Sequence record: LR990704 | DNA from: Escherichia phage vB_Eco_NR1 | Direction: 5' to 3' (one strand) | DNA length: 64,000 nt | Shown here: piece by piece, positions 3,488 to 44,009 of the stretch | Layout of the letters: every line of letters begins with the position of its first letter | How positions within the stretch are numbered: position 1 is the first letter of the stretch | The notes under the pieces: model-generated | What the model was told of the DNA's origin: nothing | Database searches by the model: none | The model's input: the letters and a program-made list of their open reading frames with translations, nothing else | Made by a program: the position numbers and the translations under genes

Positions 3488-5053
3488 ATGACTATCAAAA
3501 CTAAAGCTGAACTTTTGAACAAATGGAAACCATTACTGGAAGGTGAAGGTTTACCGGAAATTGCTAATAGCAAACAAGCGATTATCGCTAAAATCTTTGA
3601 AAACCAGGAAAAAGATTTCCATACAGCTCCAGAGTACAAAGACGAAAAAATCGCTCAGGCGTTTGGTTCTTTCTTAACAGAAGCTGAAATCGGTGGTGAC
3701 CACGGTTACAACGCTACTAACATCGCTGCTGGTCAGACTTCTGGCGCAGTAACTCAGATTGGCCCAGCTGTTATGGGTATGGTACGTCGTGCTATTCCTA
3801 ACCTGATTGCTTTCGATATTTGCGGTGTTCAGCCGATGAACAGCCCGACTGGTCAGGTATTCGCACTGCGCGCTGTATACGGTAAAGACCCAATCGCTGC
3901 CGATGCTAAAGAAGCATTCCACCCAATGTATGGCCCAGATGCAATGTTCTCTGGTCAGGGTGCTGCTAAGAAATTCCCAGCTCTGGCTGCTAGCACACAA
4001 ACCACAGTAGGTGATATCTATACTCACTTCTTCCAGGACACTGGTACTGTGTATCTGCAGGCTTCTGCTCAAGTAACAATTGATGCTGGTGCGACTGATG
4101 CTGCTAAATTAGATGCTGAAATTAAGAAACAAATGGAAGCAGGTGTACTGGTAGAAATCGCTGAAGGTATGGCTACTTCTATCGCTGAACTTCAGGAAGG
4201 TTTTAACGGTTCTACCGATAACCCATGGAATGAAATGGGCTTCCGTATCGATAAACAAGTTATCGAAGCTAAATCTCGTCAGCTGAAAGCTGCTTACTCT
4301 ATTGAATTAGCACAAGACCTTCGCGCTGTTCACGGTATGGATGCTGATGCTGAACTGTCCGGTATTCTGGCTACCGAAATTATGCTGGAAATCAACCGCG
4401 AAGTTGTTGATTGGATTAACTACTCCGCTCAGGTTGGTAAATCTGGTATGACCCTGACTCCGGGTTCTAAAGCTGGTGTATTTGACTTCCAGGACCCAAT
4501 CGATATTCGTGGTGCTCGCTGGGCGGGTGAATCCTTTAAAGCTCTGTTGTTCCAGATTGACAAAGAAGCAGTTGAAATTGCTCGTCAGACCGGTCGTGGT
4601 GAAGGTAACTTCATTATCGCTTCCCGTAACGTAGTTAACGTTCTGGCTTCAGTTGATACTGGCATTTCTTATGCTGCACAGGGTCTGGCTACCGGCTTTA
4701 ACACTGATACTACCAAGTCAGTATTTGCTGGTGTTCTGGGTGGTAAATACCGTGTATATATCGACCAGTATGCTAAACAGGATTATTTCACTGTAGGTTA
4801 TAAAGGTCCGAACGAAATGGATGCTGGTATTTACTATGCTCCATATGTAGCTCTGACTCCGCTGCGTGGTTCCGATCCGAAGAACTTCCAACCAGTAATG
4901 GGATTCAAAACTCGTTACGGTATCGGTATCAACCCATTTGCAGAATCCGCTGCTCAGGCTCCGGCTTCTCGCATCCAGAGCGGTATGCCTTCTATTCTGA
5001 ATAGCCTTGGTAAAAACGCTTACTTCCGCCGTGTATATGTTAAAGGTATCTAA
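3488..5053 (+). CDS. 23: major capsid protein gp23
   Basis: 521 aa; N-terminus MTIKTKAELLNKWKPLLEGEG.. recognised as T4 gp23; strong SD; stem-loop terminator downstream. Confidence 0.97.
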   Translation: MTIKTKAELLNKWKPLLEGEGLPEIANSKQAIIAKIFENQEKDFHTAPEYKDEKIAQAFGSFLTEAEIGGDHGYNATNIAAGQTSGAVTQIGPAVMGMVRRAIPNLIAFDICGVQPMNSPTGQVFALRAVYGKDPIAADAKEAFHPMYGPDAMFSGQGAAKKFPALAASTQTTVGDIYTHFFQDTGTVYLQASAQVTIDAGATDAAKLDAEIKKQMEAGVLVEIAEGMATSIAELQEGFNGSTDNPWNEMGFRIDKQVIEAKSRQLKAAYSIELAQDLRAVHGMDADAELSGILATEIMLEINREVVDWINYSAQVGKSGMTLTPGSKAGVFDFQDPIDIRGARWAGESFKALLFQIDKEAVEIARQTGRGEGNFIIASRNVVNVLASVDTGISYAAQGLATGFNTDTTKSVFAGVLGGKYRVYIDQYAKQDYFTVGYKGPNEMDAGIYYAPYVALTPLRGSDPKNFQPVMGFKTRYGIGINPFAESAAQAPASRIQSGMPSILNSLGKNAYFRRVYVKGI

Positions 5054-5066
5054 TCTTTGACGATTT

Positions 5067-5097
5067 AAGGGACCTTCGGGTCCCTTTAGTTGTTTTT
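5067..5097 (+). terminator. intrinsic terminator after gene 23
   Basis: AAGGGACC-TTCG-GGTCCCTT stem-loop followed by a T-rich tract. Confidence 0.8.
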
Positions 5098-5101
5098 ATG
5101 G

Positions 5102-5109
5102 TATAAATA
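5102..5109 (+). promoter_or_regulatory. late promoter (TATAAATA) for gene 24
   Basis: Exact TATAAATA 28 nt upstream of the gene 24 ATG, just after the gene 23 terminator. Confidence 0.75.
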
Positions 5110-5136
5110 AATCATATAAACCAAAAGGAAAGCGCA

Positions 5137-6420
5137 ATGGCTAAAATCAACGAACTTCTGCGCGAATCAACCACAACGAATAGCAACTCAATCGGTCGCC
5201 CAAATCTCGTTGCTTTGACTCGCGCTACCACTAAATTAATATATTCTGACATTGTAGCAACGCAAAGAACTAATCAACCTGTTGCTGCTTTTTATGGTAT
5301 CAAATACCTTAACCCAGACAATGAATTTACATTTAAAACTGGTGCTACTTATGCTGGCGAAGCTGGATATGTAGACCGAGAACAAATCACAGAATTAACA
5401 GAAGAGTCTAAATTAACTCTCAATAAAGGCGATTTATTCAAATATAATAATATTGTTTATAAAGTATTAGAAGATACACCATTTGCTGATATTGAAGAAA
5501 GCGATTTAGAATTAGCTCTTCAGATTGCAATTGTTCTTTTAAAGGTTCGTTTATTTTCTGATGCTGCAGTAACAAGCAAATTTGAAAGCTCTGATAGTGA
5601 AATTGCGGATGCTAGATTCCAGATTAATAAATGGCAAACTGCAGTTAAATCTCGTAAACTTAAAACTGGCATTACGGTTGAATTAGCACAAGATTTAGAA
5701 GCAAATGGATTCGATGCTCCTAATTTCTTGGAAGATTTGCTTGCAACTGAAATGGCAGATGAAATCAATAAAGATATTCTGCAATCTTTGATTACAGTAT
5801 CAAAACGCTATAAAGTTACAGGAATTACTGATACTGGATTCATTGATTTGAGTTATGCATCTGCACCTGAAGCTGGTCGTTCATTATACCGAATGGTATG
5901 TGAAATGGTTTCGCATATCCAAAAAGAATCAACTTATACTGCAACGTTCTGTGTTGCTTCAGCTCGTGCCGCTGCGATTCTTGCTGCATCAGGTTGGTTA
6001 AAACATAAACCAGAAGATGACAAATATCTTTCACAAAATGCCTATGGGTTCTTAGCTAATGGTTTACCGCTTTATTGCGATACTAACAGCCCATTAGATT
6101 ATGTAATCGTTGGCGTAGTAGAAAATATTGGCGAAAAAGAAATTGTTGGATCAATTTTCTATGCTCCATATACAGAAGGTCTTGACTTAGATGACCCTGA
6201 ACATGTAGGTGCATTTAAAGTTGTAGTTGATCCAGAAAGTTTGCAGCCATCTATCGGTTTATTAGTTAGATATGCTTTATCAGCAAATCCTTATACCGTA
6301 GCAAAAGATGAAAAAGAAGCAAGAATAATTGACGGTGGAGACATGGATAAAATGGCGGGTCGTTCAGATTTGTCTGTTTTATTAGGTGTTAAGCTACCAA
6401 AAATTATCGTTGATGAATAA
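5137..6420 (+). CDS. 24: capsid vertex protein gp24
   Basis: 427 aa gp23 paralogue in canonical position; late promoter upstream; terminator downstream. Confidence 0.95.
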   Translation: MAKINELLRESTTTNSNSIGRPNLVALTRATTKLIYSDIVATQRTNQPVAAFYGIKYLNPDNEFTFKTGATYAGEAGYVDREQITELTEESKLTLNKGDLFKYNNIVYKVLEDTPFADIEESDLELALQIAIVLLKVRLFSDAAVTSKFESSDSEIADARFQINKWQTAVKSRKLKTGITVELAQDLEANGFDAPNFLEDLLATEMADEINKDILQSLITVSKRYKVTGITDTGFIDLSYASAPEAGRSLYRMVCEMVSHIQKESTYTATFCVASARAAAILAASGWLKHKPEDDKYLSQNAYGFLANGLPLYCDTNSPLDYVIVGVVENIGEKEIVGSIFYAPYTEGLDLDDPEHVGAFKVVVDPESLQPSIGLLVRYALSANPYTVAKDEKEARIIDGGDMDKMAGRSDLSVLLGVKLPKIIVDE

Positions 6421-6426
6421 AACAAA

Positions 6427-6451
6427 GGGACCTTTCGGTCCCTTTTTATTT
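6427..6451 (+). terminator. intrinsic terminator after gene 24
   Basis: GGGACC-TTTC-GGTCCC stem-loop followed by TTTTTATTT. Confidence 0.8.
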
Positions 6452-7454
6452 AACTTACCAATTCAATCCAAGCCGGACGAAGTACATCTTGTACCATTTT
6501 AACTAATTCCTTTTTAATCAAAGAAGGATTATCCGCTTGAGTTAGAGTAATACCTTCACGAGAAGTTTCTTCCAAAATATCTTGAACAGTTAGTCCCATC
6601 ACCTTTCCAAAATCTTTTGGACCAATTTCGCCAATTTTAGAAATAACGTTATTTACTCGGTTTAGTGTAACGTAACAAGCTAAAATCCCCACCAATTTGT
6701 TATCAGCTTCTGACAGTTCAACTTTAGCTTTAATAGGCTTATCAGACTTTTTCTTTTCACTAAATTTAGAATTCTTGCATTTGATGGCTACACGATTGCG
6801 ATTAGGCAGCCAAGAAGGATAACAAGGTTTCAATACATATCCTTCAGCGGTAAATACTTCGCCTTTTGCTTCGGCATTCCAAACGCATTTATTTGCATCA
6901 ACTAATCCAGCATGGTCTACTGTAAAATTATAATCTTGGACGACAGAATCTAAATCATTTGGCAATTTAATAAGTTCTTCAAATTTACCGCGACCTAAAA
7001 GTGGAGCCATTTTAAATTTAAACGTATTACAGAATGATTCCATCATATAATCATCGACATAAGTCACATCACCACTTTCTGTAGTAACAATAATGTCAAA
7101 TACATAAAAATCTTTATCGCCATAATCAACATTCTTCTGAATGCCAGGTCCAGCGAATTCGCCAAAGACTTGATAAGATACAACCGCTGAGGTTTCCATA
7201 ATATCTTGTACTGCTTTAATGGAATCAGCGTAATTCTTCAAAATAATTTCATACCCAAAGAAATCTTCAGCAGGAAGAATCGGTCCAGTACGTTTAGCAC
7301 AAGTTACTTTATCACGCTCAATAATCAATGAAAAGTTTGTACCATGAATCTTTTCACGAGCTACCCATTCGCCGCCAGTCAATCCTAAACTGTAAAGTTT
7401 TTCAATAAATTTAGAGTTGTAATGATTTTCAAGACTGCTATACTTTTTAAACAT
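6450..7454 (-). CDS. rnlB: RNA ligase 2
   Basis: 334 aa; nucleotidyltransferase lysine motif (..EKIHGTNFS..) and length match T4 Rnl2. Confidence 0.9.
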
Positions 7455-7463
7455 AATTAATCC

Positions 7464-7742
7464 TCAAAATGTAATTTCTAACCAATCACCATCACGCTGA
7501 TCACTATTGACTTTAAAGCTAAATCCTTCTTTTCTCAGCCAATCACCAATTTCTTCAGTAATCAATTTATCGCGAGCAGTACAATAATAACTAAAATATG
7601 TTTTACCTTGTTCAGCTGCTTTATTAGCAAGTTCCGAAAAATCTTTAATAAAACACTCTAGTTTAAACTGTTTACTTTTAAGTGCTTTTTCGCGTAATTG
7701 ATTAGCAAAAGATTCATTTTCATAAAGATCATACTGTTCCAT
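7464..7742 (-). CDS. 24.2: hypothetical protein (T4 24.2 position)
   Basis: 92 aa ORF between rnlB and hoc on the minus strand. Confidence 0.7.
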   Translation of the reverse strand: MEQYDLYENESFANQLREKALKSKQFKLECFIKDFSELANKAAEQGKTYFSYYCTARDKLITEEIGDWLRKEGFSFKVNSDQRDGDWLEITF

Positions 7743-7944
7743 TTTTCACCTTTTTATTAATATGTCTTTTTCTATAGACAACTTTTTCTCGAGTCTCAAA
7801 TTTATTTTTAGCAGTCATAGCTCGAGCCCATAATACAGCCACTTCTTTTGCCTGTAAGTTCAATTCACGAGCAATTTCAATGAATGACTTTCCAGACTCA
7901 TGAAGAGTAAACACCACAACCTCAGTTCTCATAATCAATCTCAT
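7729..7944 (-). CDS. 24.3: hypothetical small protein, possible helix-turn-helix (T4 24.3 position)
   Basis: 71 aa ORF overlapping the 24.2 start. Confidence 0.65.
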   Translation of the reverse strand: MRLIMRTEVVVFTLHESGKSFIEIARELNLQAKEVAVLWARAMTAKNKFETREKVVYRKRHINKKVKNGTV

Positions 7945-8002
7945 GTTATCGAGTTGGTGCCATTATATACATCATTTTCTGATTGTGTTTTGTGTGCTTT
8001 CA

Positions 8003-37999: not shown

Positions 38000-38791
38000 T
38001 CACATATTGTGTATAAGCACTTCGGTCTGAAATGATGCACCCTTCTTTTGCTTCCTATACATGGTTTCAAAATATTCAATTTTGAAATTATTAGAAAGGG
38101 CCCAATCTTTTAAAATATAATTATTAATATCGTCTGATAGATTATTAGTGATAATAAATTTAGACTTCGATTGTTTAATTTTGTCTAATAATTCTAATTC
38201 ATCCTTTTCTTCCCAGCCTGAATATTTAAATTTAGTAGAAAGATACGGCGGGTCAATGAATAAATTTTTGTTTTCAAAATCCAAATCTCTGAATGATTTA
38301 TTACTAAATGTAAATCGGTGCTGTCTATTTTTAAATTCAGAAAATTTATCCTGCTGAGACTTATTAAAAGAAGTTCTGGAATACTTGGCTCTATTGGCGA
38401 AAGCCGCGTTATAATTCCCATTACTAGAAAATCGGATTAACGAACTGAATGAAAATAAATGTAGAACATAAAGATATAATCCGTTTTTGGTTTTATCGTA
38501 TTCTTTTGACAGATTATAAAAAGGTGCTGAATCTTTGTCATTCAAATTAAAATCTTCAATAATTTTAACTATATCATTAATTGAAGATGATTTCATCTTT
38601 TTATACATGTCTATAAGAGGAGTATTAATATCATTACATATAACATCTCTCTGACAATTCATAGAAAATCCAAGACCACCACAAAAAGCATCCAAAACAG
38701 GCTTATCGTCAAAGCGGTTTGAAAATTGTCTAATAAATGGCATATACTTATGTTTTGCACCTGGATATGTTATGGCAGGTAGGTCTTTCAT
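38000..38791 (-). CDS. Dam-family N6-adenine DNA methyltransferase-like protein
   Basis: 263 aa; N-terminal YPGAK, motif I DAFCGGLGF (FxGxG) and motif IV IDPPYL in alpha-class order; AT-rich relative to the flanking nrd genes. Confidence 0.8.
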   Translation of the reverse strand: MKDLPAITYPGAKHKYMPFIRQFSNRFDDKPVLDAFCGGLGFSMNCQRDVICNDINTPLIDMYKKMKSSSINDIVKIIEDFNLNDKDSAPFYNLSKEYDKTKNGLYLYVLHLFSFSSLIRFSSNGNYNAAFANRAKYSRTSFNKSQQDKFSEFKNRQHRFTFSNKSFRDLDFENKNLFIDPPYLSTKFKYSGWEEKDELELLDKIKQSKSKFIITNNLSDDINNYILKDWALSNNFKIEYFETMYRKQKKGASFQTEVLIHNM

Positions 38792-38834
38792 ATTATTTCT
38801 CGTTGTTGGTGACTCGTCCGTGAGTCAAATTATA

Positions 38835-41099
38835 TCATAATTTACAGGATGAACAATCTTCAGCTTTTGGAGTTTCTATTTCATAATCATCAGTACCAGA
38901 ACCATCACGGGTATTATGATAATAGAAATTTTTTCCGCCAAAATACCAAAAGTACAAAAGGTCATCAATCATTACAGACATTGGAACCTTTCCTTTTGGA
39001 AAAATCTGCGGGTCATAATATGTATTTGCTGAAGCTGATTGACATACCCATTTAAGCATAATAGCTACCTGCGTAAGATAAGGTTTATTACCTTTCTTAG
39101 CTAATTTCCATGTATAATCATAGAGGTCTATGTTATGCTCAATATTGGGCACGACTTGATTAAAGGAGCCCTCTTTTGATTCTTTAACAGAGACTGGTCC
39201 ACGTGGAGGCTCGATACCGTTTGTACTGTTAGAAACTTGGGAAGATGACTCACATGGCATAAGTGCTGATAATGTGCTATTACGGATGCCAAAGAGCTTA
39301 AGGTCTTCCCGCAGCGACGACCAGTCACAAACGTATTTTGGAGCTGCGATTTGGTCAATCTTTTTATTGTACCAGTCGATAGGTAATTCGCCTCGAGACC
39401 AACGAGTGTCTGAATAATATTCGCAAGGTCCTTTTTCTTTGGCGAGCTTAATGGATGCTTTAATGAGTCCATACTGTAATCTCTCAAATAGTTCATGTGT
39501 TAAATCGTTAGCATCTTCATAAGAAGCAAAGTTACTTGCCAGCCAAGCTGCATAGTTAGTAACACCTACACCGAGGTTACGACGCTTTTTAGCTTTTTCT
39601 GCTTCAGGAACTGGATATCCTTGGTAATCCAAAAGATTATCAAGAGCACGAACTTGGACTTCTGCCAATTCATTAATTTTATCTTGGTCTTGCCAGTCAA
39701 AATTATCCAGTACGAATGCAGATAACGTACACAATCCAATTTCAGCATCAGGACTATTCACATCATTTGTTGGAATAGCAATTTCACAACACAAGTTACT
39801 CTGACGAATAGGTGCCTTTTCACGAATAAACGGAGTATAGTTATTCGTATTATCAATGAACTGTACATAAATCCTTGCTGTTCCTGAACGTTCAGTCATG
39901 AGCAATTCAAATAGTTCACGGGCTTTAATACGCTTTTTACGAATATTAGGGTCTTTTTCTGCTGCTTCGTATAATTCACGGAAACGGTCTTGGTCTTTAA
40001 AATAAGAATAATAAAGCTCTCCACCCATTTCATGTGGACTGAACAAAGTAATGTAATCGTTCTTTCCAAATCGTTCCATCATCAAATCATTCAGCTGAAC
40101 GCCATAATCCATATGACGAATGCGGTTTTCTTCTACGCCTTTGTTATTTTTCAAAACGAGAAGATTTTCAACTTCCAAATGCCAAATAGGATAATAAGCA
40201 GTAGCAGCGCCGCCACGAATTCCACCCTGTGAACATGATTTAACTGCAGTCTGAAAATGTTTCCAAAAAGGAATAACACCAGTATGACGTACTTCACCCA
40301 TGCCAATCTTAGAACCTTCAGCACGAATCATACCAACATTAATACCAATTCCAGCGCGTTTAGAGATATATTCAACAATTGAAGCGGAAGCCTTATTGAT
40401 AGACTTCAATGAATCACCTGCCTCAATAACAACACATGAACTAAACTGTCGAGTTGGAGTACGGCAACCAGCCATAATAGGAGTTGGCAATGAAATCTGT
40501 CGAGTAGATACTGCTTCATAAAAACGGATAACATGTTTTAATCTATCAACAGGTTCATCTTGATGCAGTGCCATTCCAATAGTCATAAATGCAAACTGCG
40601 GAGTTTCATAAATTTGACCAGTGGTTTTATCTTTAACTAGATATTTTTCTTTTAATTGCATCGCACCGGAATAAGTAAATTCCATATCCCGCTCGTGCTT
40701 AATTTTTGATTCTAAAAATGTAATTTCTTCTGCTGAATATTTTGACAATAATTCAGGGTCATATTTACCTGCATTTACACAGTAAGAAATATGGTCAATA
40801 AATGAACGCGGTTCATACTGCCCGTAAACATGCTTACGAAGAGCAAACATTAAACAGCGTGCAGCTACATATTGATAATCAGGCTCTTCAACCGAAATAG
40901 AATTCGCAGCAGCCTTAATTACAATAGTTTGAATGTCATCAGTGGTCATTCCATCACGGAGATATGATTTAATATTTTCATATAATTCATAAGGATCTAC
41001 AGATGTTCCTTCAGCTGCCCAAGATAAAACTTTAATAATTTTTTGTGGGTCAAAGCTCTGAGAAACACCACTACTTTTGATAACATTAATTAATTGCAT
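38835..41099 (-). CDS. nrdA: ribonucleotide reductase alpha subunit
   Basis: 754 aa; [22 protein letters not shown].. recognised as T4 NrdA. Confidence 0.97.
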   Translation of the reverse strand: MQLINVIKSSGVSQSFDPQKIIKVLSWAAEGTSVDPYELYENIKSYLRDGMTTDDIQTIVIKAAANSISVEEPDYQYVAARCLMFALRKHVYGQYEPRSFIDHISYCVNAGKYDPELLSKYSAEEITFLESKIKHERDMEFTYSGAMQLKEKYLVKDKTTGQIYETPQFAFMTIGMALHQDEPVDRLKHVIRFYEAVSTRQISLPTPIMAGCRTPTRQFSSCVVIEAGDSLKSINKASASIVEYISKRAGIGINVGMIRAEGSKIGMGEVRHTGVIPFWKHFQTAVKSCSQGGIRGGAATAYYPIWHLEVENLLVLKNNKGVEENRIRHMDYGVQLNDLMMERFGKNDYITLFSPHEMGGELYYSYFKDQDRFRELYEAAEKDPNIRKKRIKARELFELLMTERSGTARIYVQFIDNTNNYTPFIREKAPIRQSNLCCEIAIPTNDVNSPDAEIGLCTLSAFVLDNFDWQDQDKINELAEVQVRALDNLLDYQGYPVPEAEKAKKRRNLGVGVTNYAAWLASNFASYEDANDLTHELFERLQYGLIKASIKLAKEKGPCEYYSDTRWSRGELPIDWYNKKIDQIAAPKYVCDWSSLREDLKLFGIRNSTLSALMPCESSSQVSNSTNGIEPPRGPVSVKESKEGSFNQVVPNIEHNIDLYDYTWKLAKKGNKPYLTQVAIMLKWVCQSASANTYYDPQIFPKGKVPMSVMIDDLLYFWYFGGKNFYYHNTRDGSGTDDYEIETPKAEDCSSCKL

Positions 41100-41416
41100 A
41101 AGTCCTCAACTTGAAAATCGTCTTTAAACAATCGGTTAACTATATGAGCTATTATATCACCATGACACGGCTTTGGTTTACATGTGCATCCTAGCCTCAT
41201 TCCACGTAAAGGCTCTAAATGTGCTTTAGTTATTTCTCCGGATTTAATTCGACGTATAAAATCTTTTTTGAATAATTCAATGGCAGCCTCCCGGCTGCCA
41301 GCATCTTTACCGACGTAATTTCCCCAAAATGTACCACGGTGAATATTAACATCAAAGTCGGATTTGTATTTATTCACTACCCGGCATAGACGGCCCACGC
41401 TGGAATAATTCGTCAT
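41090..41416 (-). CDS. small protein with DUF4326-like C-terminal Cys/His motif
   Basis: 108 aa; ..[39 protein letters not shown]..; overlaps nrdA start by 10 nt. Confidence 0.6.
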
Positions 41417-41633
41417 ATTGTTTTTCCGTTAAAACAGTAATATCGTAGTAACAGTCAGAAGAAGTTTTAACTGTGGAAATTTTATTATCAAAATACTCAC
41501 GAGTCATTTTATGAGTATAATATTTTTTACCATAAATGATAATAGGCTGTTCTGGTCCTGGAACTTCTAACTCGCTTGGGTTAGGAAGTGTAAAAAGAAC
41601 AACGCCAGAAGTATCTTTAAATCGTAAAATCAT
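41370..41633 (-). CDS. hypothetical protein, 87 aa
   Basis: ORF with ATGA coupling to the td stop; overlaps the next ORF by 47 nt in another frame. Confidence 0.5.
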
Positions 41634-42490
41634 ATTGCCATTTTCCCTTTAATTGCTGGATGCGATTCATAATTTTCAAGGATAAAATCTTTCGGTTTCA
41701 TGTATTCAGTTAACCAGTAAAGCTGTGTTTCGGTGTCACAATTTCCAAACTCTATAGGCCAATCAATTTTAAGTTCACATAGTTCTTTAGGCTCACGACG
41801 TAAAATTTCTTTACATTGCTCAGTATGATTCATATAGATGTGAGTATTACCACCAGAAAATATCAAATCTCCTGGGATAAGATTACACATCTTAGCCACA
41901 ATATGCGTCAAGGCAGCGTACGAGGCAATGTTGAATGGCAATCCCAAGAAAACATCTACACTTCTTTGGTACCATTGTAAATCAAGATAACCATTACGCA
42001 CATTAAACTGATAGAACATATGACAGGGCGGTAATGCCATTTGATTGATTTCAGCTGGATTCCATGCTGAAACGATTTGACGTCGATCAGTTGGTAATTT
42101 TTTAATACGATCAATAGTTTCAACTAATTGATCCACACCACCGAAATCACGCCATTGTTTACCGTATATAGGACCAAGTTCACCACTATGATATCCTAGG
42201 TCTTTAGCCTGGTTTTCATAGTTATCGTCCCAAATAGTTTTGCCTTGAATAAGACTACCATGAGTGCGAAGACGTAAATCATTAACATTGGTAGAACCGG
42301 AAATAAACCATAAAAGCTCAGCAATGCATGCATTCCAGGCGAGCTTCTTAGTTGTTACTGCAGGAAAACCTTTACTTAAATCCCAGCGTAATTTAGTACC
42401 GAACAAAGCAATTGTTCCTGTGCCCGTTCGGTCATCGGTTTCATAGCCATTTTCAAAAATGTCTTTAATTAAATCTTGGTATTGTTTCAT
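41630..42490 (-). CDS. td: thymidylate synthase, uninterrupted
   Basis: 286 aa contiguous ORF (..[10 protein letters not shown]..); no group I intron. Confidence 0.97.
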
Positions 42491-42535
42491 TTAGTACCTT
42501 ATATAAATTATAATACATTTTATGAAGCTAAATAA

Positions 42536-42883
42536 TCAATACGGTTTAGCATCAAATTTTCTCTCAATTTCAGGCGTGAAATATAATTCTTTACCGCGTT
42601 TGGAAAAGCGACCAATAATATGATAATTATTCTCATCAAACGTGATATTACCAATATCCATAGCTTTCAACCAAATATCGATATTTCTATCCAACTTTAT
42701 GTCAAAATTCCAATACGGAGAACTATTACCGAAAATACTGCAAGCGGATTCAGTAAAACAACTACTATAAATCTTGTCTTTAGGAACTACTAATTGATAA
42801 ACGCCTTTAATAAACTGAGGACCCTGCCACTTTGGCTGTTTCTCATCTTTTTCTAATAGAATAGGGTAATAATTAAAATTCAT
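42536..42883 (-). CDS. hypothetical protein, 115 aa, between frd and td
   Basis: ORF filling the frd-td interval; AT-rich. Confidence 0.6.
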   Translation of the reverse strand: MNFNYYPILLEKDEKQPKWQGPQFIKGVYQLVVPKDKIYSSCFTESACSIFGNSSPYWNFDIKLDRNIDIWLKAMDIGNITFDENNYHIIGRFSKRGKELYFTPEIERKFDAKPY

Positions 42884-42902
42884 ATTTCCGCCACGCGTTA
42901 TT

Positions 42903-43729
<827 letters not shown>

Positions 43730-43739
43730 ATTATTTTCC

Positions 43740-43982
43740 TTAAACAGACTTTTTCACAATTTTCCAATCGGCTTTAAACTGCTCGACGTCAGAATGGTAA
43801 ATCCAAAATCCTGCGCTTTCACCGTCTTCATAAAGCGGACACCCATCACATTCATCTTCCCATCCCATGCCACGTAAAAGGTGTTCAGCTTTTTCAACAA
43901 GTTCAGAATCTTTACCGATGATATTAAAATACCATTTACCTCTAACTTCCGAATCTTTGATGCTCTGACGTTGTAATCTCAT
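43740..43982 (-). CDS. hypothetical protein, about 80 aa (frd.2-like)
   Basis: ATG with AAGGAG SD at 43982; the provided ORF extends to an upstream TTG at 44039. Confidence 0.6.
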   Translation of the reverse strand: MRLQRQSIKDSEVRGKWYFNIIGKDSELVEKAEHLLRGMGWEDECDGCPLYEDGESAGFWIYHSDVEQFKADWKIVKKSV

Positions 43983-44009
43983 TTTATTCTCCTTAGTTGA
44001 TAAGGCTAT

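Follow-up and report, generated by a model that had tools for sequence, protein, structure and literature searches.

Between the thymidylate synthase gene, td, and nrdA, the gene for the large subunit of ribonucleotide reductase, the DNA of Escherichia phage vB_Eco_NR1 (sequence record LR990704) carries two small overlapping genes, which are the orthologues of nrdA.2 and nrdA.1 of phage T4. The window analysed here is a stretch of 64,000 nucleotides of this record, and the two genes lie in it within the frd-td-nrdA nucleotide-synthesis gene block. Their identity is certain: nrdA.2 encodes a DUF5496 protein and nrdA.1 a DUF4326 protein. The feature was already known, since both genes are named in T4 and both Pfam families had been assigned before. 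Judged from its sequence and its relatives, NrdA.1 is most likely a small enzyme centred on cysteine and histidine residues, which would act on phospho-ribose or on substrates derived from adenosine diphosphate (ADP)-ribose.

Identity with the T4 genes

The RefSeq genome of T4 (NC_000866) annotates nrdA.1 (327 nucleotides) and nrdA.2 (264 nucleotides) between td and nrdA, with the same overlaps of 47 and 10 nucleotides, and the genes of the window agree with them in position, length, overlap geometry and sequence. The 108-residue protein is identical to T4 NrdA.1 (NP_049846, UniProt P32279) at 108/108 positions, and the 87-residue protein is identical to T4 NrdA.2 (NP_049847, UniProt P32280) at 86/87. 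In J03968, the original GenBank record of T4 nrdA, the 87-residue open reading frame (ORF) already appears as ORF 'Y'. An initial annotation of the window had described two overlapping ORFs of 87 and 108 residues in different frames between td and nrdA, and its coordinates, lengths and quoted motifs are all correct; its premise that T4 has no gene at this place is wrong. The same ORFs are present and named in T4, but a literature search on nrdA.1, nrdA.2 and DUF5496 found no functional study.

NrdA.1 matches Pfam PF14216 (DUF4326) with an E-value of 5.5e-22 and 78.7 bits (cutoff 25) over profile positions 1-81 of 82. This match, together with the near-invariant Cys/His loop described below, bears out the family proposed for the 108-residue protein in the initial annotation. 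NrdA.2 matches PF17600 (DUF5496) with an E-value of 1.4e-62 and 208.2 bits (cutoff 27) over positions 1-87 of 87. In PHROGs the two proteins belong to phrog_464 (108 residues) and phrog_2458 (87 residues), both of unknown function. The PADLOC defence-system models and NCBIfam gave no match for NrdA.1 or NrdA.2.

The genes and their junctions are located in the window as follows.

41630-42490, minus strand: td, thymidylate synthase gene, a single uninterrupted, intron-less ORF of 286 residues (Pfam Thymidylat_synt, E 4.7e-96)
41630-41633, minus strand: stop/start overlap of td and nrdA.2, 4 nucleotides, ATGA
41370-41633, minus strand: nrdA.2 orthologue, ORF of 87 residues with an ATG start, DUF5496 protein
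41370-41416, minus strand: overlap of nrdA.2 and nrdA.1, 47 nucleotides, out of frame, coding for the C-terminal tail of NrdA.2 and the N-terminal tail of NrdA.1
41090-41416, minus strand: nrdA.1 orthologue, ORF of 108 residues with an ATG start, single-domain DUF4326 protein
41090-41099, minus strand: overlap of the nrdA.1 stop and the nrdA start, 10 nucleotides, ATGCAATTAA
38835-41099, minus strand: nrdA, class Ia ribonucleotide reductase large subunit, 754 residues (Pfam ATP-cone, Ribonuc_red_lgN and Ribonuc_red_lgC)

Partial DUF4326 matches in some phage genomes of about 148 kb, such as H80 (OL656106.1) and H83 (OP562383.1), carry the label 'putative ribonucleoside-diphosphate reductase 1 alpha subunit', and PHROG 24867 (phrog_24867) is labelled 'NrdA-like'. 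These labels are probably annotation errors that have spread from the gene name nrdA.1.

Coding evidence and expression

Both ORFs are real genes and not chance ORFs. The NrdA.1 and NrdA.2 proteins of T4 were both detected by mass spectrometry in a time-resolved study of its transcriptome and proteome (supplementary tables, PMC9697503). There nrdA.2 falls into the early RNA/middle protein class, as does td, and nrdA.1 falls into the early RNA/late protein class, as do nrdA and nrdB. Substitutions were counted in eight distinct Tequatrovirus sequences. The variable codons of the segment read only as nrdA.2 are 12 synonymous versus 4 nonsynonymous, and those of the segment read only as nrdA.1 are 6 versus 1. 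The 47-nucleotide overlap varies more than any other stretch: of its 8 variable sites, 7 alter the amino acid in NrdA.2 and 7 that in NrdA.1. It codes for unconstrained tails of the two proteins. The residues of NrdA.1 ahead of Cys11 are missing in other genera, in which the DUF4326 protein begins just before this residue.

A genome-wide knockdown of T4 genes with dCas13d (CRISPRi-ART, PMC11879866) gave values of -0.116 for nrdA.1 and -0.349 for nrdA.2. Both were classed as 'Not Fit', and the two genes are therefore dispensable for growth of T4 on a laboratory host. In the same screen nrdA, td and frd are also 'Not Fit'.

The opposite view would be that neither ORF is functional and that the region is only regulatory DNA, with promoters and hairpins, for nrdA. 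It can draw on J03968, which places a late promoter, two stem-loops, a -35/-10 pair and the nrdA ribosome-binding site within the present nrdA.1, and on the stable folding of a hairpin inside that gene. Three of these elements are found in the window as follows.

41281-41300, minus strand: G+C-rich hairpin UGGCAGCC-GGGA-GGCUGCCA inside nrdA.1, stem_loop 467-486 of J03968, same DNA as in T4
41253-41280, minus strand: nrdA promoter TTGAAT-16-TATACG inside nrdA.1, -35 at 487-492 and -10 at 509-514 of J03968, identical to T4
41104-41107, minus strand: nrdA ribosome-binding site GAGG inside the 3' end of nrdA.1, 660-663 of J03968, sequence identical to T4

The hairpin has a predicted stem of 8 base pairs, and the 81-nucleotide fold around it has a z of -2.1; no terminator-like T tract was found at it. 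Between 40900 and 41900, the frequency of promoter-like sites does not exceed that of shuffled sequence, no terminator was predicted, and the consensus promoter scan missed the nrdA promoter annotated in T4. Four observations speak against a purely regulatory region: the detection of both proteins in T4 by mass spectrometry, the clear excess of synonymous over nonsynonymous changes in each frame, the deep conservation of DUF4326 with its near-invariant residues, and an Rfam scan of positions 38000-44000 that returned no matches. Spurious ORFs and purely regulatory DNA were rejected on the T4 proteomics and the substitution patterns, and the chance that neither ORF is functional is negligible.

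The late-promoter element of J03968 (41361-41374) differs from that of T4 at position 41366 on the minus strand, where a T>C change, synonymous at Tyr17 of NrdA.1, turns TATAAAT into TACAAAT. If this promoter functions in T4, it is probably weakened in the window.

Since the nrdA promoter lies inside nrdA.1 and hence cannot express it, NrdA.1 would be translated from longer transcripts that start upstream. Both nrdA.2 and nrdA.1 are thus expected on long messenger RNAs that begin at frd/td, on which the stop/start overlaps would link nrdA.2 with td, and nrdA.1 with nrdA. The three overlaps, of 4 nucleotides (td/nrdA.2), 47 nucleotides (nrdA.2/nrdA.1) and 10 nucleotides (nrdA.1/nrdA), are compatible with the translational coupling suggested in the initial annotation and are of the permissive kind. 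Such coupling is inferred from geometry only, and J03968 gives nrdA a promoter and a ribosome-binding site of its own.

The DUF4326 domain of NrdA.1

DUF4326 is a large family, and an exhaustive profile search (E<=1e-3) recovered 10,570 representatives of clusters formed at 50% identity. Conservation was assessed in 155 domain instances and is given here in the numbering of NrdA.1. C77 and C84 are each kept in 154/155, H85 and N33 in 153/155, and C79 and P81 in 152/155. They are followed by R27 (148/155), D87 (143/155), D22 (142/155) and N15 (139/155). C11, which is kept in 26/155, is clade-specific. The NrdA.1 of the window has all the family-conserved residues, namely the C-x-C-x-P-x2-C-H-G-D loop and the N, D, R and N of the N-terminal half, and it shows the family signature VVN...D..I.RG...GN...LGCxCxPxxCHGD. 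The Tequatrovirus proteins differ from the family in having WGNY (Tyr34) where 139/155 members have WGNP, and in the extra Cys11. The near-invariant C77, C79, C84 and H85 are candidate ligands for a putative Cys3His zinc site.

The AlphaFold2 model of NrdA.1, built on a 37-sequence alignment, is confident, with a predicted local distance difference test (pLDDT) score of 87.9 and a predicted template modelling (pTM) score of 0.80. It contains strands at residues 12-15 and 74-77 and helices at 42-59, 64-70, 85-96 and 103-106. As strand 74-77 and helix 85-96 flank the Cys/His loop, the loop joins a strand to a helix. The structure prediction and fold comparison proposed in the initial annotation yielded a confident model, but no solved structure resembles it: the best Foldseek E-value against solved structures is no lower than 1.2, and the DUF4326 sequence profile run against all PDB chains gave only noise (best E 0.63).

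The arrangement of strand, Cys-loop and helix is characteristic of rhodanese and Cdc25-type cysteine phosphatases. The model of NrdA.1 resembles them in that a conserved cysteine stands at the C-terminal end of a beta strand and is followed by a short loop and a helix. C77, C79 and C84 lie in or beside the loop after strand 74-77; no arginine of the CX5R type closes this loop, and His85 is found there instead. The fold search gave no significant match of NrdA.1 to the rhodanese, Cdc25 or protein tyrosine phosphatase (PTP) folds. Iyer, Burroughs and Aravind have proposed placing DUF4326 in a divergent rhodanese-phosphatase clade, with a predicted action on terminal ribose phosphates in ADP-ribose derivatives (PMC7824862, PMC9503650). 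This assignment is not reproduced here, because no solved structure resembles the NrdA.1 model; the modelled placement of the cysteine in a strand-loop-helix unit is compatible with it.

The T4-like DUF4326 proteins are stand-alone domains. Elsewhere in the family the domain is fused to others, and the partners were counted among 45 multidomain representatives. The commonest are mSLOG (7), YAcAr-SLOG (6), DprA (4) and NADAR (3); NADAR-DarT1, Macro, TIR, DNA polymerase A, RNase H and RNA polymerase were found once each. The architectures include DUF4326-Macro, DUF4326-NADAR, NADAR-DUF4326, DUF4326-SLOG and DUF4326-RNase H, and the Macro partner matches the DarG antitoxin model with an E-value of 1.7e-67. 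The partners described by Iyer, Burroughs and Aravind (SLOG, Macro, NADAR and replication enzymes; PMC7824862, PMC9503650) were therefore recovered here too.

A relationship of DUF4326 to NADAR itself (PF08719; ADP-ribosyl-guanine hydrolases, E. coli YbiA) was considered and rejected, the probability in profile comparison being only 0.2%.

The enzyme proposed for NrdA.1 would be a catalytic or ligand-binding domain of about 90 residues. Its centre would be formed by the loop C77-x-C79-x-P-x2-C84-H85-G-D87, which joins a beta strand to a helix, and by N15, D22, R27 and N33. The three cysteines and the histidine would either bind a metal ion or provide a thiol as nucleophile. The likeliest substrate would be a phosphorylated ribose, or a small molecule or nucleic-acid adduct derived from ADP-ribose, because SLOG, NADAR, DarG-type Macro and TIR domains recur as fusion partners of DUF4326. 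The role of the protein may be conditional, in that it would clear or convert a product derived from nicotinamide adenine dinucleotide (NAD+) or ADP-ribose during infection, in counter-defence or salvage; such a role fits the dispensability of nrdA.1 in the laboratory.

The account as a whole, made up of the gene identities, expression from upstream transcripts, a conditional phospho-ribose- or ADP-ribose-linked domain in NrdA.1 and a NrdA.2 with no assignable mechanism, has a little less than an even chance of being right in all its parts. A bolder form of the proposal for NrdA.1 is that it represents a minimal, stand-alone enzyme of a new fold without kinship to any solved structure, whose Cys/His loop removes or converts a phospho-ribosyl or ADP-ribose-derived group on a small-molecule immune signal or on ADP-ribosylated DNA or nucleotides. 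This form is doubtful, though possible, and if true it would place a counter-defence or repair enzyme within the operon for deoxyribonucleoside triphosphate (dNTP) synthesis of T4-like phages.

Gene order and alternative roles of NrdA.1

NrdA.1 has 72 close homologue clusters, most of them of about 100 residues, and all of those with a precomputed Pfam match (70/70) contain DUF4326 alone. The named close homologues include proteins from phages of Serratia, Pectobacterium, Yersinia, Providencia and Acinetobacter. The domain as such was found by tblastn in 1,960 phage records. When the td-nrdA junction was compared across T4-like genomes, as the initial annotation had suggested, the gene order frd, td, DUF4326, nrdA was kept in 24/24 of the loci retrieved (L003-L026), and among the 23 loci in which a DUF4326 ORF was called, 18 have this ORF running 1-14 nucleotides into the nrdA start.

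This constant position is the first argument for the main rival reading, according to which NrdA.1 serves the ribonucleotide reductase or the dNTP-synthesis complex of the phage as an accessory factor. It might, for instance, be a metal or redox protein of the Cys3His type with a part in assembling, reducing or regulating NrdA/NrdB. The kinetic class that T4 NrdA.1 shares with NrdA and NrdB and the three invariant cysteines of the family agree with it. So do some neighbouring genes in phages beyond the nearest T4 relatives. On a metagenomic contig with a gp32-like gene upstream (L027, IMGVR_UViG_3300007790_000242, 3989-7991), the DUF4326 ORF overlaps the start of an NrdA-like ORF by 11 nucleotides, and two further loci (L061 and L074) have an NrdA-like gene within about 2 kb. 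The NrdA-like ORF of that contig has 1,223 residues versus 754 in T4 NrdA, the extra length possibly being due to an intein or a fusion. The DUF4326 gene stands beside nrdB in the KP15 group and beside a reductase-activating protein in phage G17. At 56 non-T4-like viral loci, most neighbours are genes for replication or nucleotide metabolism; they include DuOB, DUF488, Toprim, 5'-3' exonuclease, NrdD/NrdG-type genes (2 each), IMPDH/GMP reductase (2) and ThyX (1). Most of these loci, however, have no reductase nearby, a match to NrdA, Td or Frd being present in only 5/56, and the fusion partners suggest ADP-ribose, SLOG and nucleic-acid enzymes, with no reductase among them. The synteny may also be plain inheritance within one phage family. 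The T4 knockdown does not inform on this reading, because nrdA itself was also 'Not Fit'. On balance a reductase accessory is unlikely.

Still other neighbours and partners would suit a small zinc-binding protein, either a nucleic-acid-binding regulator or a replication/repair accessory, rather than an enzyme. The C-x-C-x4-C-H pattern could make a Cys3His zinc site; the domain is fused to DNA polymerase A, RNase H, 3'-5' exonuclease and RNA polymerase; and replication genes often adjoin it in other phages, such as those for Toprim, 5'-3' exonuclease and gp32-like proteins. Yet the near-invariant polar residues N15, D22, R27, N33 and D87 are not part of the Cys/His cluster and resemble an active or ligand site, the SLOG, NADAR, Macro and TIR partners are commoner than the nucleic-acid enzymes, and the NrdA.1 fold matches no known zinc finger. 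A zinc-finger role in nucleic-acid binding is rather improbable, and less likely than an accessory of the reductase or dNTP complex. An enzyme acting on phospho-ribose or ADP-ribose-derived substrates remains the preferred reading of NrdA.1.

NrdA.2 and its slot

NrdA.2 is confined to Tequatrovirus, where it occupies a fast-evolving, variable slot. Its homologues form only 12 clusters, all of them from coliphages of the T4 type or from unnamed contigs, with at least 87% identity wherever the whole protein was matched. Other T4-like genera have dissimilar ORFs of 57-77 residues in the slot between td and DUF4326 (L007-L021), and in three loci (L006, L014 and L016) td abuts DUF4326 with no ORF between them. 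A profile comparison of NrdA.2 with the slot ORFs by hhalign gave a probability of 58% and an E-value of 9.9e-5 over 50 columns. The predicted model of NrdA.2 is of low confidence (pLDDT 63); in a Foldseek search of BFVD it gave weak matches to T4-like phage proteins of 60-68 residues, including a 66-residue protein of Serratia phage Muldoon. The slot may hold one fast-evolving family of small proteins, of which the slot ORFs would be fast-diverged NrdA.2 homologues. NrdA.2 itself would be a small, fast-evolving, beta-rich protein. The word accessory, which the initial annotation applied to both genes, suits NrdA.2, with its single genus and variable slot; it suits NrdA.1 less, as a DUF4326 gene stands beside nrdA in every T4-like locus examined.

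NrdA.2 and NrdA.1 might act as a pair, NrdA.2 being a regulator, inhibitor or adaptor of NrdA.1. The two genes are always adjacent and overlapping in Tequatrovirus, and most other T4-like genera have a small ORF in the same slot, for whose remote homology the hhalign and Foldseek matches give some indication. Against a pair stand the three loci that lack an ORF between td and DUF4326, the different temporal classes of NrdA.1 and NrdA.2 in T4, and the low confidence of the NrdA.2 model. Such a pair is improbable.

Significance

As a finding the two genes add little, being named genes of the best-studied phage with Pfam families already assigned. The remaining value lies in the pointer to DUF4326, a large family whose Cys/His centre is nearly invariant and which has neither a solved structure nor a known activity. 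T4 makes the protein but does not need the gene, and is thus a tractable model for it. Once solved, the chemistry of DUF4326 would give an annotation to thousands of proteins of phages, giant viruses and bacteria, and it could test the proposed tie to NAD+/ADP-ribose conflict systems.

Genomic context and neighbouring genes

A match covering at least 80% of the whole 1.2-kb region was found in 292 phage records, nearly all of them of Tequatrovirus-type coliphages. No phage record is identical to the window across 10 kb, and the window is therefore a mosaic relative of T4 with a T4-like, Tequatrovirus genome.

The td gene of T4 is split by the I-TevI intron, whereas that of the window has no intron and a divergent 3' end. 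On the minus strand between 41630 and 41720, similarity to T4 of about 99% gives way, precisely upstream of the start codon of nrdA.2, to sequence that clearly diverges, and the 20-nucleotide spacer with GAGGA that separates td from nrdA.2 in T4 is replaced by the ATGA overlap. Both types of junction, overlap and spacer, occur among the relatives. The pattern suggests that recombination broke the sequence here, at the boundary between two genes.

Immediately downstream of nrdA (38000-38791, minus strand) lies an ORF of 263 residues for a Dam-like, D12-class N6-adenine DNA methyltransferase, in the slot where T4 carries mobE, a homing endonuclease gene. The methyltransferase ORF has matches to Pfam MethyltransfD12 (E 5.5e-24), phrog_56 and, below the cutoff of that model, TIGR00571. 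The ORF is rare, being present at 95% identity or more in 4 of 50,697 phage records (for example T4_ev240, LR597657), and its identity to the annotated DNA adenine methylases of other T4-like phages is only about 35%.

Upstream of td, an ORF of 115 residues (42536-42883, minus strand) lies between frd and td, which overlap directly in T4. It belongs to phrog_1928, of unknown function, and searches of Pfam and NCBIfam gave no match; phage FriedrichMiescher has an ORF of equal length at this position, annotated as 'putative homing endonuclease'. The longest ORF of frd (42903-43511, minus strand) has 202 residues, versus 193 for the 582-nucleotide frd annotated in T4 and FriedrichMiescher, and translation probably begins nine codons further in, at an internal ATG.

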